Shown here: in pieces, positions 21,329 through 30,367 of the stretch
How positions within the stretch are numbered: the stretch's first letter is position 1
Layout: each line of letters opens with the position of its first letter
Origin: Chromatiaceae bacterium
GTDB taxonomy: Bacteria; Pseudomonadota; Gammaproteobacteria; Chromatiales; Chromatiaceae
NCBI GenBank assembly: GCA_024235175.1
Contig: JACKMX010000009.1
Span: 32,704 to 96,703, forward strand
Direction: 5' to 3'
DNA length: 64,000 nucleotides
Translations under genes and position numbers: made by a program
Notes under the pieces: model-generated
The model's database searches: none
Seen by the model: only the letters and a program-made list of their open reading frames with translations
Told to the model about the DNA's origin: nothing

Positions 21329-23824
21329 ATGGAACGTCGCTTTCGTACAGGTTGTGTAAGGCTCTTCCTGGGATCAGTGTCCATCCTGTTGGCATTCGCA
21401 TCTTCTGCTCATGCCGCTGAAAACGACACTTCCGTTGTCTATGGCAAGTCCGGCTATTTCGCAGCGGATGCAGGACTCAACGCTTCTGAACGGGCCGGAC
21501 GCGAGATCTGGTATAAGGCAACGGCGGGCAATGACCGATTCCATACCTACGTCTTTCAGCAGCGCATCGGCGTGTTGATCGACTGGTACAGGATTCTGAA
21601 CGGCAGAGAGCGCAACGACAGATTTGCCGCATGGGGTCTGATCAACGACCCTGACTGCTGCCAGCCGGGCAGCGACGGCTGTCCTGCCAAAAGCTACGAT
21701 GAGACCTTTGGTTTCGACTGGTGTCCGGGCGACGCTGAACTCCTCAAATATGTCGGTAAACCAGGTTACCGGGATCCCGCATGCGATTTTGCGGAAGGGC
21801 CCGTTGCAGCCGGCGATCCCCATGCGAAGGCCGGGCAGCGCCAGTCAGCCTGCGACCTCAAATTCGGCACCTCCAGCGGAGCACTGGGATTGCGCAAGTT
21901 TCCCAACCCACGCTTCGATCCGGTTCGCTGGAAAAGTCTGAATGGAGGAAGCCTGGACAACTGGTATGGGTACAATCGTCCGCTGAGCAGCGATCCCAAA
22001 AACTCGGACAGCCGCATCAGCCGTCTGCGTGACGGCTCCATTGAACCGCCTTTCCGCATCGGCATGGCATGTGGCGCCTGCCATATTGCTTTCGACCCGC
22101 TCAATCCACCGGATGATCCGGCGCATCCGAAATGGGGAAATATCAAGGGTGTCATTGGCAACCAGTATGCGCGGCTTTCCGAGGTGATGGCGTCCGGCAT
22201 GCCGGTCAACAGTCTTGAGTGGCAGGTGTTTGCACATGCACGTCCGGGCACGACCGACACCTCCGCCGTACCTACCGATCAGATCAATAACCCGGGAACC
22301 CAGAATACGCTCATCAACGTGGGCAGGCGCCCGCTGTTCGCTAATGAGAAAGTCGATCGCTGGCGTAAAGTGAACGCCTGCGCGGATGGCGCCGACGAGG
22401 CGGTTTGCTGGTGTGAGCCGGGCAGGGATTCCAAGTGCTGGGAGAAGAGCGAGAAACTCCAAACTGTCCACCACATATTGAAAGGCGGCGGTGACAGCGT
22501 GGGAATCGACCTCGCGGTGCAGCGTGTCTACATCAACATCGGCTCCTGCTCCGAGGAGTGCTGGGTCAATCATCTTACCGATCTGCGCGAACTCGACCCC
22601 CAGCAACGAGGCTACGGTCAGACGCCTGTGGATATTGGCCAATGCCGGCGAGACTGCCCCAATTTCCGCGCGGTGGAGGATCGGGTGAACAATGTCGTCG
22701 ATTTCCTGCTTTCGCCGCGTCTCTATGCCACCGATCTGCGTCAGGCGAGAGAGCTCAAAGCGAAAGATGAGGATCCAGGCGCAAGCTACTCCCGGGATGA
22801 CCTGGTGGACGATCTCGAACGGGAGTTCGGTCAGAATGCTGTCAGCAGAGGCCGCCTGGTATTCGCGCAGAACTGTGCCCGCTGCCACTCCAGTCAGCAG
22901 GGTCCGGTGGAGGCCAGGGATTTTCATGCGGAAACCCTGCAGCGCGGTGTTCGTGATGATTTCCTGAGCAATGATGAATCCATTCCGGTTTCGGAAGTGG
23001 GAACTTTCCGTTGCCGGGCGCTCCACTCCAACCACATGAAGGGGCACGTCTGGGATGAGTTTTCCTCCAACACCTACAAGGAGCGTGCTCCGGATGCGAA
23101 CGTGAAGGAGGCGACGGGTGGCGGCCGTGGTTACTATCGCAACATTTCGCTGCTCAATATCTGGGCGCATGCACCTTTCATGCACAACAATGCGCTGGGG
23201 CCGGAAATCTGCGGCAAGCCAAACAACGGCAACAACGATTTTTACCGTGTGACCTATGTCGATGCCCGCGGCGCGCAGCTGGCCGACCCGCCGCAATGCT
23301 GGCCGTACGACCCAAGCGTGGAGGGGCGGTACGATCTTTACAAGGCAGCCATGGAGCAGCTGCTCAATCCGGCAGAGCGGGTGCCGAAGATAACCAAACT
23401 CAGTGAGGAGATTATTATCGAGGTGGGCCCCAGGCTTTGGGACGGTGAAGATGAGAAACAGCTGATCGGCTTGAAAATCCGCATCCCCGCGGGCACCAAT
23501 GCGGGTGCGCTCGGCAACTTCCAATACAAGGCGTTTCTGGTTGATTTGATTCTGTCAAAGATTAACGGGAAAAAACTGCAACAGCGGCTCGCAACTTCAT
23601 TGAGCGAGAGAGAGGCAGACAATCTGATTGCGGAACTCAGGGCAGCGGCGGATCAGGTGATCGCAGATCCCAATTCATTTCTGGATGTAATCAAACAACG
23701 GCCGCACCTGTTGGAGCTCTACAGCTCCTGCACGGCGGATGTGGAGAATGCCGGCCATGAATTTGGCGGGGCATTGCCTCAGACGGATAAAAATGCGTTG
23801 ACCGCCTTCCTGGCAACGTTGTAG
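21329..23824 (+). CDS. Exported di-haem c-type cytochrome, CCP/MauG-like (831 aa)
   Basis: GGAGAGG lies upstream of the ATG. It has a signal peptide ...SILLAFASSAHA and two CxxCH motifs: CGACH (22070-22084) and CARCH (22874-22888). The string WAHAPFMHNN resembles the conserved PY(M/L)H(D/N)G region of di-haem peroxidases. Confidence 0.75.
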   Translation: MERRFRTGCVRLFLGSVSILLAFASSAHAAENDTSVVYGKSGYFAADAGLNASERAGREIWYKATAGNDRFHTYVFQQRIGVLIDWYRILNGRERNDRFAAWGLINDPDCCQPGSDGCPAKSYDETFGFDWCPGDAELLKYVGKPGYRDPACDFAEGPVAAGDPHAKAGQRQSACDLKFGTSSGALGLRKFPNPRFDPVRWKSLNGGSLDNWYGYNRPLSSDPKNSDSRISRLRDGSIEPPFRIGMACGACHIAFDPLNPPDDPAHPKWGNIKGVIGNQYARLSEVMASGMPVNSLEWQVFAHARPGTTDTSAVPTDQINNPGTQNTLINVGRRPLFANEKVDRWRKVNACADGADEAVCWCEPGRDSKCWEKSEKLQTVHHILKGGGDSVGIDLAVQRVYINIGSCSEECWVNHLTDLRELDPQQRGYGQTPVDIGQCRRDCPNFRAVEDRVNNVVDFLLSPRLYATDLRQARELKAKDEDPGASYSRDDLVDDLEREFGQNAVSRGRLVFAQNCARCHSSQQGPVEARDFHAETLQRGVRDDFLSNDESIPVSEVGTFRCRALHSNHMKGHVWDEFSSNTYKERAPDANVKEATGGGRGYYRNISLLNIWAHAPFMHNNALGPEICGKPNNGNNDFYRVTYVDARGAQLADPPQCWPYDPSVEGRYDLYKAAMEQLLNPAERVPKITKLSEEIIIEVGPRLWDGEDEKQLIGLKIRIPAGTNAGALGNFQYKAFLVDLILSKINGKKLQQRLATSLSEREADNLIAELRAAADQVIADPNSFLDVIKQRPHLLELYSSCTADVENAGHEFGGALPQTDKNALTAFLATL

Positions 23825-23840
23825 ATCGGAGGGACTCGCC

Positions 23841-28858: not shown

Positions 28859-28924
28859 TGCGGGATCTGTCAACCGTGTACGGATTCCCGGGATCAGGAA
28901 ACTTCAGCAAGCCGGAGAGAGAGA

Positions 28925-30367
28925 ATGATCATGGAAAAATCTGGGAAGCGGTGGAAACTCGTGCTCGGTCTGGTTATTGTGCTGGCCGGTATCGGTGGCG
29001 TCACCGCATGGTACAAGTTTTTCCGGGAAGTTCCGGACGGCCCATTTGCCAGCGCAGATGAGCGCTTCATGTATGGCTCCATCGGCGGCGAGAACGCGGC
29101 CGGCATCCCCTATTGGATTTATGCGGTGCTACCGCGCATGTTTCCGGAGTATCTGCCGGGTCCGGGCGGTTATGCGTCACTTGGGATCGCCTGGGAGGAG
29201 GGCCGGGAGATGCCGGTGGGTTTCACCAAGAAAGTGGTTGGCTTTCCCCGGGTAAGCAACACCTGCGCGGTTTGTCATACCGCGTCGTACCGCGCCAGTG
29301 CGGATTCCACACCCAGGTTTGTGGCGGCAGGTCCGGGTCATACTTCCAACGTTCAAGGCTTTTTCCGTTTCCTGCGGGACTGTGTAAACGATCCACGCTT
29401 CAATCCCGATAATCTGCTGGATGAGATAAAGCTGCTTACCGATCTTTCGTTTTTGGATAGGCTGCTTTACCGGTTCATTATCATACCCTTCACCAAAAAG
29501 GCGTTACTGGAACGGAACTTCGACTGGATGGAGCGGGAGGATATGGCAGCCTGGGGCCATGGACGCGACGATGCGATGAACCTGACCAAGTACTTCATGC
29601 TGGAGATGGATGAGGATGGAACCTTTGGCCCGACCGATTTTCCATCCATCTGGAATCTCAAGAAATACCGGCCGGAGCAGGGTATGCGCATGAACTGGGA
29701 CGGCGCCACCTGGAATGCCCGCTCCGTGTTGATTGATTCGGCGCTGGGCATAGTGGCTGAGCCGCAAAACGATTTTCTGGAGCAGATGGATTGGCTTCTT
29801 GAGTACCTTGGCAACCTGCCGCCGCCGAAGTACCCCTTCCCCATCGATGCGGCTCTGGCACTTGAGGGGAGGCCGTTGTTCGAGTCCGAATGTGCGCGCT
29901 GCCACCAGAGTGAACGAACCGGCAAACGGATACCCTTGGCGGAGGTCGGGACCGATGAAAACCGAATTCTGAGCTGGAGTCACGAAGCGGCGAAGGCTGC
30001 GAATAAAAAGGCACTGGAGCTGGGTGTGGAACGGCGCGGCATGATTGAGGATGAACCGCTGGACGGTTATATCGCGGTACATCTGGACGGCATATGGTTG
30101 CGGGCCCCATATCTGCACAATGGTTCGGTACCCACGCTGGCTGATTTGCTGAAACCGGTGTCGGAGCGCCCCGTCTTTTTCTATCGCGGGTATGATCTCT
30201 ATGACCGGGTCAATCTGGGATTTGTGTCGGATGGCGCGGTAGCGGAACGCGTGGGCAACCGTCATGACACGCGGTTGCGGGGAAATGGCAACCAGGGGCA
30301 CGAGTATGGCCTAACACTATCGGCAGCGGAGAAGCTCGCGTTGATCGAGTATCTGAAGACCCTGTAA
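28925..30367 (+). CDS. Membrane-anchored di-haem c-type cytochrome, tandem paralogue of 27335-28858 (480 aa)
   Basis: It has an N-terminal TM helix (WKLVLGLVIVLAGIGGVTAWY), CAVCH and CARCH motifs, and LRAPYLHNGSVPTLADLL. It is collinear with the upstream paralogue over its full length by eye. Confidence 0.75.
   Translation: MIMEKSGKRWKLVLGLVIVLAGIGGVTAWYKFFREVPDGPFASADERFMYGSIGGENAAGIPYWIYAVLPRMFPEYLPGPGGYASLGIAWEEGREMPVGFTKKVVGFPRVSNTCAVCHTASYRASADSTPRFVAAGPGHTSNVQGFFRFLRDCVNDPRFNPDNLLDEIKLLTDLSFLDRLLYRFIIIPFTKKALLERNFDWMEREDMAAWGHGRDDAMNLTKYFMLEMDEDGTFGPTDFPSIWNLKKYRPEQGMRMNWDGATWNARSVLIDSALGIVAEPQNDFLEQMDWLLEYLGNLPPPKYPFPIDAALALEGRPLFESECARCHQSERTGKRIPLAEVGTDENRILSWSHEAAKAANKKALELGVERRGMIEDEPLDGYIAVHLDGIWLRAPYLHNGSVPTLADLLKPVSERPVFFYRGYDLYDRVNLGFVSDGAVAERVGNRHDTRLRGNGNQGHEYGLTLSAAEKLALIEYLKTL

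Follow-up and report, generated by a model that had tools for sequence, protein, structure and literature searches.

To our knowledge, RoxA-type di-haem oxygenases are known from two reactions only, rubber cleavage and oleate dioxygenation/diol formation. Two genes assigned to the RoxA-like family lie in the DNA of a Chromatiaceae bacterium (contig JACKMX010000009.1), in a stretch of 64,000 nucleotides that was analysed as a whole and is called the window here. They are the last of five co-directional open reading frames (ORFs), g1 to g5, at positions 21329-30367 on the + strand. The cluster is operon-like and is made up of exported di-haem proteins and a lipoprotein. The five genes form a self-contained module that is conserved vertically and horizontally across phyla.

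The closest described enzymes come in pairs. In RoxA, O2 binds at the N-terminal haem (with H195), which is the active site, and F317 lies beside the bound O2 (PMC6311187). W302 bridges the two haems, and the ligands of the C-terminal haem are H394 and H641; RoxB has V294 in place of W302 (PMC6311187). The MauG motif, which reads PYFH517NGSVP in RoxA, is common to CCP/MauG and RoxA enzymes (PMC6311187). PA2077 of Pseudomonas aeruginosa is an oleate 10S-dioxygenase possessing W251, and PA2078 is a 7,10-diol synthase possessing S243. These are tandem RoxA-like paralogues with Gln at the position of RoxA F301 (PMC4496055). The substrates of both pairs are hydrophobic and are attacked at C=C bonds, either within the periplasm or outside it.

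The first gene of the module, g1 (21329-23824), encodes a secreted di-haem protein of 831 aa. It is followed by g2 (23841-24749), a 302-aa lipoprotein, and by g3 (24773-27097), an exported di-haem protein of 774 aa. The last two genes, g4 (27407-28858, 483 aa) and g5 (28925-30367, 480 aa), encode RoxA-like di-haem proteins that are predicted to be membrane-anchored and are termed A-type and B-type. The intergenic gaps are, in order, 16 bp, 23 bp, ~309 bp, and 66 bp. Translation of g3 starts at a TTG codon 6 nt past an AAGGAG Shine-Dalgarno sequence, within a mechanical ORF that runs from 24704. An alternative TTG start of g4 at 27335 would give 507 aa; the ATG at 27407 is preferred because the gene calls of sister contigs and the N-termini of orthologues favour it.

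Each of the four haem proteins has two CxxCH sites: CGACH248 and CARCH516 in g1, CTACH219 and CSLCH664 in g3, CAACH and CAECH in g4, and CAVCH114 and CARCH323 in g5. A scripted motif search of the four proteins found no CxxxCH, CxxxxCH, or CxxCK variants. The six-frame translation of the window (~128,000 aa) contains 14 CxxCH in total, and eight of these are within the four haem-protein frames, where ~0.1 would be expected from background. All 24 motif Cys and His residues are at least 95% conserved (54-83 orthologues). The string (W/L)xAP(F/Y)(M/L)HN(N/G) is found in g1, g4, and g5, not in g3.

Much of this layout had been read from the letters of the window in a preliminary description, and the reading of the individual genes held. 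All five + strand ORFs of the cluster were confirmed, and the scripted search returned exactly the eight CxxCH that had been listed. An export signal or N-terminal anchor had been proposed for every haem protein. These are a Sec signal peptide in g1 (..SSAHA/AE), a positively charged, hydrophobic N-terminus in g3, and single N-terminal helices in g4 and g5. The embedded lipoprotein is g2, with the lipobox LLSAC27 (present in 66/75 orthologues). The second-haem-type string noted in three proteins is the MauG motif (PMC6311187).

Conservation of the module was examined in a scan of one genome per species, in which 185,579 species yielded 509 stretches encoding a g1 relative. Synteny was counted by tblastn in the best 80 of these 509 g1 matches. 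At these 80 loci, g2, g3, g4, and g5 lie directly downstream of g1, in the same order and on the same strand, wherever the contig reaches. This pattern breaks at three loci, where g4-g5 is adjacent but inverted, and at one locus without the pair within 6 kb. The g4-g5 pair moves as a unit (L009, L075, L076). The five-gene order is also observed in a Nitrospira chromosome (L007) and in a Sedimenticolaceae metagenome-assembled genome (L008/L012), and in a third distant genome (L009, the contig_4834 assembly) g4-g5 is inverted as a unit. Identity to the window proteins is ~60% for g1, ~59% for g2, ~37% for g3, ~62% for g4, and ~59% for g5. That five genes form a strictly conserved module across phyla was not visible to the earlier reader.

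Carriers include Thauera aminoaromatica S2, T. sinica, Thauera sp. 2A1, Azoarcus, Denitromonas iodatirespirans, D. ohlonensis, and Cognatazoarcus. The module is also present in Pseudomonas fluorescens PS833 and PS862, Steroidobacter, Povalibacter, Luteimonas, Thiobacillus, Gallionellaceae, Sulfurirhabdus, Rokubacteria, and Nitrospira, as well as in Chromatiaceae and Sedimenticolaceae. Public annotations name its genes "cytochrome c" or "hypothetical protein". In D. ohlonensis, a weak third RoxA/CCP-like fragment (L070 21138-21410, 27-32% identity) lies ~2.5 kb downstream of the module.

The flanks of the module differ from genome to genome. The commonest flanking family occurs in 12/82 loci, and the neighbours of the Pseudomonas locus are unrelated to those of the window. 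The Lipase_3/DUF6603 operon and the extracytoplasmic function (ECF) sigma gene that flank the module in the window are shared by near-identical sister contigs only. Co-occurrence with the neighbouring operon had been set in advance as a test of the preliminary description, and the flanks differ in every distant genome. Because they are not conserved, the module is considered self-contained and the proposed link to the giant-protein operon fails. A functional tie to the divergent DUF6603/Lipase_3/Kelch operon or to the ECF sigma gene was rejected given the unrelated flanks in distant genomes. In some lineages, alcohol dehydrogenase genes lie immediately upstream of the module (e.g., L058 6321-8108 in Rhodocyclaceae, and L047 8151-9389), which is not general. 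The gene resembles a pyrroloquinoline quinone-type quinoprotein in six Rhodocyclaceae loci (from sequence only) and is an Fe-type alcohol dehydrogenase in P. fluorescens (Pfam).

The g4 and g5 proteins, ~52 kDa each, are 38% identical over their full length (hhalign E=5e-121). Their scores mark them as true paralogues of the RoxA-like di-haem family. The RoxA-like cytochrome c domain PF21419 matches g4 with 55.8 bits and g5 with 60.8 bits, against a gathering threshold of 26.7. Both pass the curated cut-off of 150 of NF040606, with 185.4 bits for g4 and 169.7 bits for g5. The RoxA and RoxB equivalog models NF050033/NF050034 give 46/49 bits for g4 and 64/72 bits for g5, which fail the cut-offs of 1000/900. 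A g4/g5 profile built from 50 orthologues aligns with RoxA (4b2n) at E=1.3e-23 in four colinear blocks, within which lie the Trp bridge, F317, the MauG motif, and H641. Weak matches of the same profile are to the structures 9qdt and 6e1c, of the type of bacterial cytochrome c peroxidase (bCCP) and MbnH. Each protein has a conserved single N-terminal membrane helix followed by a conserved juxtamembrane sequence, and no cleavage site is obvious, so both are probably anchored rather than cleaved.

The residues that define the RoxA active site are divided between the two proteins. The equivalent of the W302 bridge is W251 in g4, kept in 58/58 orthologues, and is variable in g5 (F27/W19/L5/H3). The F317 equivalent is F267 in g4 (kept in 57/58) and Leu in g5 (54/54). 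The MauG motif, APYLHNGSVP, is invariant in both. At the RoxA pocket position F301, g4 has an invariant His250 and g5 an invariant Asn (N257); with these polar residues, the pocket would be more polar than in RoxA. The axial His459, the equivalent of RoxA H641, is found in 58/58 g4 orthologues and is kept in g5. The alignment of this invariant N-x-G-H His with H641 suggests that the C-terminal haem of both proteins is bis-His. Orthologues of the g4 type and the g5 type remain ~38% identical to each other, and g5 orthologues are ~59% identical to the window g5. The duplication is therefore regarded as ancient, with both copies maintained.

The g1 protein reaches the cut-off of no Pfam or NCBIfam family. 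Its sub-threshold scores are 12.1 bits for PF21419, 29.6 bits for NF040606, and ~13 bits for the RoxA/RoxB models. The C-terminal half of g1 matches the C-terminal halves of g4 and g5 by hhalign with a probability of 97-98%, and g1 505-831 aligns with g5 312-480 with a probability of 98%. The alignment with g4/g5 spans the second CxxCH, an EVGT element, WAHAPFMHNN, and the N-x-G-H-x-F-G ... DK-AL-FLATL tail. By these profile comparisons, g1 505-831 is assigned as a RoxA-type second-haem domain containing CARCH516, WAHAPFMHNN, and N-x-G-H810-x-F-G. Its MauG-type motif is APF(M/L)HNN, and the axial H810 is kept in 82/83 orthologues. The W302 and F317 positions are not alignable in g1.

No relative was detected for the N-terminal half of g1, including the first haem site. 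The protein is highly constrained, with 280/831 positions at least 95% identical (83 sequences; 34%). Invariant residues include ~20 Cys in the N-terminal half and 12 Trp. A moderately confident AlphaFold2 (AF2) model of g1 (pLDDT 72, pTM 0.75) gave no Foldseek match in the PDB at E<=0.001, RoxA included. Profiles of g1, g2, and g3 run against PDB sequences returned generic cytochrome c turns or noise only.

The lipoprotein g2 lies between g1 and g3 in every case and is ~59% identical across phyla. No Pfam, NCBIfam, or PDB match was found for it, profile searches included. Its family comprises at least 3500 proteins (3539 relatives), and all are annotated as "hypothetical" and carry no annotated domain.

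The g3 protein is identical to MCP5445222.1, and its family numbers 1485 clusters at 50% identity. BLASTP of g3 against g1, g4, and g5 found nothing, and profile-profile comparison gave a probability of 3-36% confined to the CxxCH turn. On these comparisons, g3 is unrelated to g1, g4, and g5 and is a separate family. No Pfam, NCBIfam, or PDB-sequence relative was found for it, nor a match to PF21419 or NF040606. Its AF2 model is confident (pLDDT 84, pTM 0.85) but had nothing in the PDB at E<=0.001 by Foldseek, and the predicted fold is new. A beta domain at ~445-575 has its best partial Foldseek matches in half-barrels of the LolA/LprG/lipocalin type, with a probability of <=0.38. The last ~130 aa contain CSLCH664 and conserved M699 and M712, and PF13442 is matched below threshold in 31/51 members; this tail looks like a class-I cytochrome c. 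For haem 1 (CTACH219), there is no other conserved His elsewhere in the protein.

A subgroup of g3 relatives of ~1000-1030 aa (P0289, P0292, P0313, P0381, etc.) possesses an N-terminal dienelactone-hydrolase (DLH) domain, PF01738. The G-x-S-x-G nucleophile of these fusions is sometimes present (GWSDG) and often missing (GWGANG). At the sole fusion locus inspected (L090 3722-6781), the DLH-g3 gene stands alone, without g1, g2, g4, or g5, so g3-type proteins can function outside the module. A reading of the ~1000-aa relatives as g2-g3 fusions was rejected, as the extension is the dienelactone-hydrolase domain.

Two claims about family membership in the preliminary description are thus revised. 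It had taken the four haem proteins for paralogues; by BLASTP and profile-profile comparison this applies to g4 and g5 only (38% identity), g1 shares one domain with them, and g3 is unrelated. It had also placed them in a CCP/MauG-like family. No match to PF03150 was found in any of the five proteins by hmmscan at E<=1, and a canonical CcpA/MauG identity was rejected. By profile score, g4 and g5 instead fall in PF21419 and NF040606, and are neither RoxA/RoxB equivalogs nor bCCP/MauG enzymes.

The surroundings of the module in the window are partly rearranged. An IS110-family element lies at 19436-21068 on the - strand, in the divergent intergenic (promoter) region 260 bp upstream of g1; its transposase (19494-20846) matches the Pfam families DEDD_Tnp_IS110 and Transposase_20. 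The element is a precise 1633-bp insertion relative to an otherwise ~99% identical sister contig (L001), and from this precise absence the insertion is taken to be recent. It is not part of the module, and in this strain it may affect how the module or the Lipase_3 operon is expressed. Beyond it lies the divergent operon at 2131-19206 (- strand), which encodes a Lipase_3 protein (607 aa), a 1632-aa DUF6603 protein, a Kelch-repeat protein, 743-aa and 1159-aa proteins without a Pfam domain, and two further unannotated proteins. The module had been described as back-to-back with this giant-protein operon. The geometry is correct, but the 1.6-kb IS110 element lies in between.

On the other side, the module converges on the ECF sigma gene. 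Between g5 and this gene, at 30385-30864 on the - strand, is the 159-aa 3' remnant of a hypothetical gene. Compared with sister contigs (L001 11461-12564), a deletion of ~810 bp has removed the 5' two-thirds of a 367-aa hypothetical gene and the spacer to the sigma gene. The 159-aa ORF is accordingly a remnant and not an intact anti-sigma partner. The convergent geometry and the sigma gene of the earlier reading stand, and the sigma "pair" does not, as its second ORF belongs to a truncated gene.

In the g3-g4 spacer (27098-27406, + strand), a GC-rich hairpin has a short U tract behind it. The hairpin, within 27160-27290, is CCCTCTCCCT-CACG-AGGGAGAGGG, followed by GGCTTTTGCGACAC. A 21-nt unit, GAGAGGGGGCTTTTGCGACAC, occurs at 27178 and 27211, 33 nt apart, and a diverged copy is found 6.5 kb downstream at 33748-33768. 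The fold has no extra stability compared with shuffled sequences (z = -0.97). The spacer may be a partial or weak terminator, or a repetitive extragenic palindrome (REP)-like element, that separates g1, g2, and g3 from g4 and g5. Inside the cluster, no sigma-70-like promoter was found and the terminator scan was at background level; an Rfam search gave zero matches. Upstream of g1, motifs for FNR, Fur, OxyR, sigma-54, ECF, NsrR, LexA, and CRP, and de novo 7- and 8-mers, were none of them above shuffled controls (68-79 loci).

With the module, eight c-type haems sit on the periplasmic side of the inner membrane, in two sub-units, one of g1, g2, and g3 and the other of g4 and g5. The explanation that is favoured, tentatively, is a membrane-tethered oxygenase system that depends on O2 or peroxide and acts on a hydrophobic substrate. 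By analogy with RoxA, the N-terminal five-coordinate haem of each RoxA-type protein would be the site of O2 or H2O2 activation. The C-terminal bis-His haem, with its N-x-G-H ligand, would be the redox partner across the MauG-motif/Trp bridge. The g4 and g5 proteins may carry out two successive or complementary oxidation steps, and precedents for this division are RoxA/RoxB on polyisoprene and PA2077/PA2078 on oleate. As judged by the marker residues, the A/B-type split of g4 and g5 mirrors these two pairs. The larger g1 would be a third enzyme of the RoxA superfamily and g2 a scaffold or ligand carrier. The class-I-like tail of g3 could provide the link to the periplasmic cytochrome c pool, priming or re-reducing the haems, and g3 might also have catalytic activity of its own, at the open first haem.

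The substrate would be hydrophobic and membrane-associated or lipoprotein-delivered, e.g., an unsaturated lipid or isoprenoid. Weak hints at a lipid or ester are the resemblance of g3 to LolA/LprG/lipocalin, the DLH fusions, and sporadic lipase neighbours. The last are Lipase_3 in the window, a patatin-like gene in nine loci (sequence motif only), and GDSL and MBOAT genes in Nitrospira.

Several points weigh against this explanation. The lipid hints are weak: Foldseek gives a probability no higher than 0.38, most of the fusions have lost the DLH nucleophile, and most loci have no lipase neighbour. Since RoxA-type oxygenases and PA2077 work without an external electron donor, simple dioxygenase chemistry leaves the cytochrome-like tail of g3, and the extra di-haem protein g1, unexplained. 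The N-terminal halves of g1 and g3 have no detectable relatives, which leaves half the protein mass without interpretation. The likeness to PA2077/PA2078 is drawn from published features of these proteins, and haem ligation and pocket residues are assigned by sequence alignment. In g4, His250 beside the bridging Trp could equally serve peroxidase chemistry or be a sixth haem ligand. The preliminary description had given the function as not established, and full-text literature searches found no account of the five-gene module.

A broader reading is doubtful. The module could be an unrecognised multi-subunit eight-haem periplasmic enzyme made up of RoxA-type oxygenase domains, two new protein architectures (the N-terminal half of g1, and g3), and a new lipoprotein, with a reaction for which no gene has so far been named. 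For instance, it might use O2 to oxidise or cleave a membrane lipid or isoprenoid, in a reaction coupled to the cytochrome c pool; a new redox reaction that serves respiration or detoxification is another candidate.

One rival, held to be unlikely, is a periplasmic peroxide-reducing multi-haem system, respiratory or detoxifying. Electrons would pass from the cytochrome c pool through the class-I domain of g3 to the RoxA-like or CCP-like haems of g1, g4, and g5, and on to H2O2 or organic (lipid) hydroperoxides at the membrane surface. An invariant distal His (g4) or Asn (g5) where RoxA has Phe suits this chemistry, as do the MauG/CCP motif with the bridging Trp, the cytochrome-c-like entry domain of g3 (fitting for a reductive enzyme), and the weak profile matches to 9qdt and 6e1c. 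The family of g4 and g5, NF040606, is named "di-heme-cytochrome C peroxidase". However, PF03150 is unmatched by any protein, and a bis-His C-terminal haem of the RoxA kind is predicted rather than the His/Met haem of bCCPs. Sites of the OxyR, FNR, and Fur type are not enriched upstream of g1 (79 loci). Canonical bCCPs manage with one ~340-aa protein, and a strictly conserved set of five genes, with three novel large proteins, is hard to justify for this task; the preliminary view that the cluster is more than a simple peroxidase is upheld. The host range suggests another rival, in which the module would serve redox reactions of inorganic or small molecules (nitrogen oxides, hydroxylamine, sulfur compounds, Fe(II)/Mn(II), or halogen oxyanions, for example). 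Here g1 or g3 would be catalytic and the RoxA-like proteins would be membrane-anchored electron relays. Denitrifiers, nitrite oxidisers, and sulfur and iron oxidisers are plentiful among the carriers (Thauera, Azoarcus, Denitromonas, Nitrospira, Thiobacillus, Gallionellaceae, Sedimenticolaceae, Chromatiaceae). This bias may reflect the sampling of wastewater and groundwater metagenomes, and the module is also found in P. fluorescens, Steroidobacter, Povalibacter, and Luteimonas. Eight haems fit electron transfer, haem 1 of g3 lacks a conserved distal His and could thus be open for catalysis, and the extreme conservation of g1 (34% of positions at least 95% identical) fits a catalytic core. Yet the RoxA active-site markers kept in g4 orthologues are unneeded by pure electron carriers, and the inspected loci have no conserved quinol-oxidising membrane subunit, porin, or accessory maturation gene nearby. 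This reading is improbable.

Least probable, and by a low estimate, is maturation of the MauG kind, in which g4 and g5 would oxidatively modify g1, g3, or g2 to form a protein-derived cofactor or cross-links, and the modified protein would be the real enzyme. The ~20 invariant Cys and 12 invariant Trp of g1 could be raw material for cofactors of the Cys-Trp type, though the Cys are more simply explained as periplasmic disulfides. The MauG motif, the two-haem architecture, and the strict co-inheritance of the enzymes with their putative targets are in keeping with such a role. Against it, the known protein-modifying di-haem enzymes (MauG, MbnH, and relatives) all belong to PF03150, which is unmatched here, and RoxA-family members with a protein substrate are not known (PMC6311187, PMC4496055). 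A maturase that consists of two different anchored enzymes would also be unusual.

What is new at this locus is a RoxA-type pair locked into a five-gene, eight-haem module; the families of g4 and g5, PF21419 and NF040606, were known. Neither a Pfam or NCBIfam family above cut-off nor a relative of solved structure exists for g1, g2, and g3. Conservation is 37-62% identity, depending on the gene, from Gammaproteobacteria to Nitrospira and Rokubacteria. Carriers include nitrifiers, denitrifiers, and sulfur oxidisers, in up to ~500 species. Since cultured, tractable carriers are available (Thauera aminoaromatica S2, Thauera sinica, Pseudomonas fluorescens PS833/PS862, and Denitromonas), the function is directly testable. 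The substrate, once identified, would widen the range of reactions known for the CCP/MauG/RoxA superfamily, and it would give an annotation to several thousand genes now called "hypothetical" or "cytochrome c" in bacteria of wastewater, soil, and groundwater that drive the nitrogen and sulfur cycles.

Compared with RoxA (4b2n), the RoxA-type proteins of the module share the two CxxCH, an N-terminal haem that is the presumed active site, and the MauG motif. RoxA H641 corresponds to H459 of g4/g5 and to H810 of g1, and the C-terminal ...EYLKTL tail is also shared. The g4 protein further possesses equivalents of the Trp bridge and F317. As with RoxA and RoxB, the proteins are paired and one partner is without the bridging Trp (V294 in RoxB; g5 here). 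The RoxA and RoxB enzymes of Steroidobacter cummioxidans 35Y differ in being ~660 aa and secreted, whereas g4 and g5 are ~480 aa and predicted to be anchored. Position 301 is His or Asn in g4/g5 rather than Phe, and the equivalog scores are 46-72 bits against 900-1000. Rubber degraders do not need g1, g2, or g3, and the hosts of the module are not known rubber degraders.

The FadCcp proteins PA2077 and PA2078 are likewise periplasmic, RoxA-like paralogues that are co-transcribed in tandem, with 43% identity to each other compared with 38% for g4 and g5. They have in common with g4/g5 the MauG motif, the C-terminal axial His, a polar residue at the F301 position, and a bridging Trp in one partner only. 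They differ in being soluble proteins of 634/624 aa with cleaved signal peptides, encoded in a two-gene operon, whereas g4 and g5 are shorter, anchored by prediction, and always found with g1-g3. A metagenome scan for PYFHNGSVP recovered no PA2077-like gene (CAGCH/CAACH, 634 aa).

Enzymes of the bCCP/MauG group are also periplasmic two-haem proteins, with a Trp between the haems (kept in g4, variable in g5) and a P-Y-x-H-x-G interface motif. They differ from the module proteins in size, in membership of PF03150, which none of the four haem proteins matches, and in a His/Met second haem where the module is predicted to have bis-His. They act as single genes or with mau/mbn partners, and such partners are absent here.

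The same metagenome scan found ~450-530-aa proteins with two CxxCH and PYFHNGSVP (loci L091-L170), which are abundant, diverse, and mostly encoded by single genes. Their C-terminal signature is ...(E/Q)(R/K)xA(V/I/L)(I/L)EYLKTL, and this large RoxA-like family appears essentially uncharacterised. Stand-alone metagenome proteins of the NF040606 type are 30-36% identical to g4/g5. The sampled other members of the NF040606 subfamily stand alone, with no g1, g2, or g3 relatives nearby, whereas g4 and g5 of the module are two specific, separately conserved orthologue groups.

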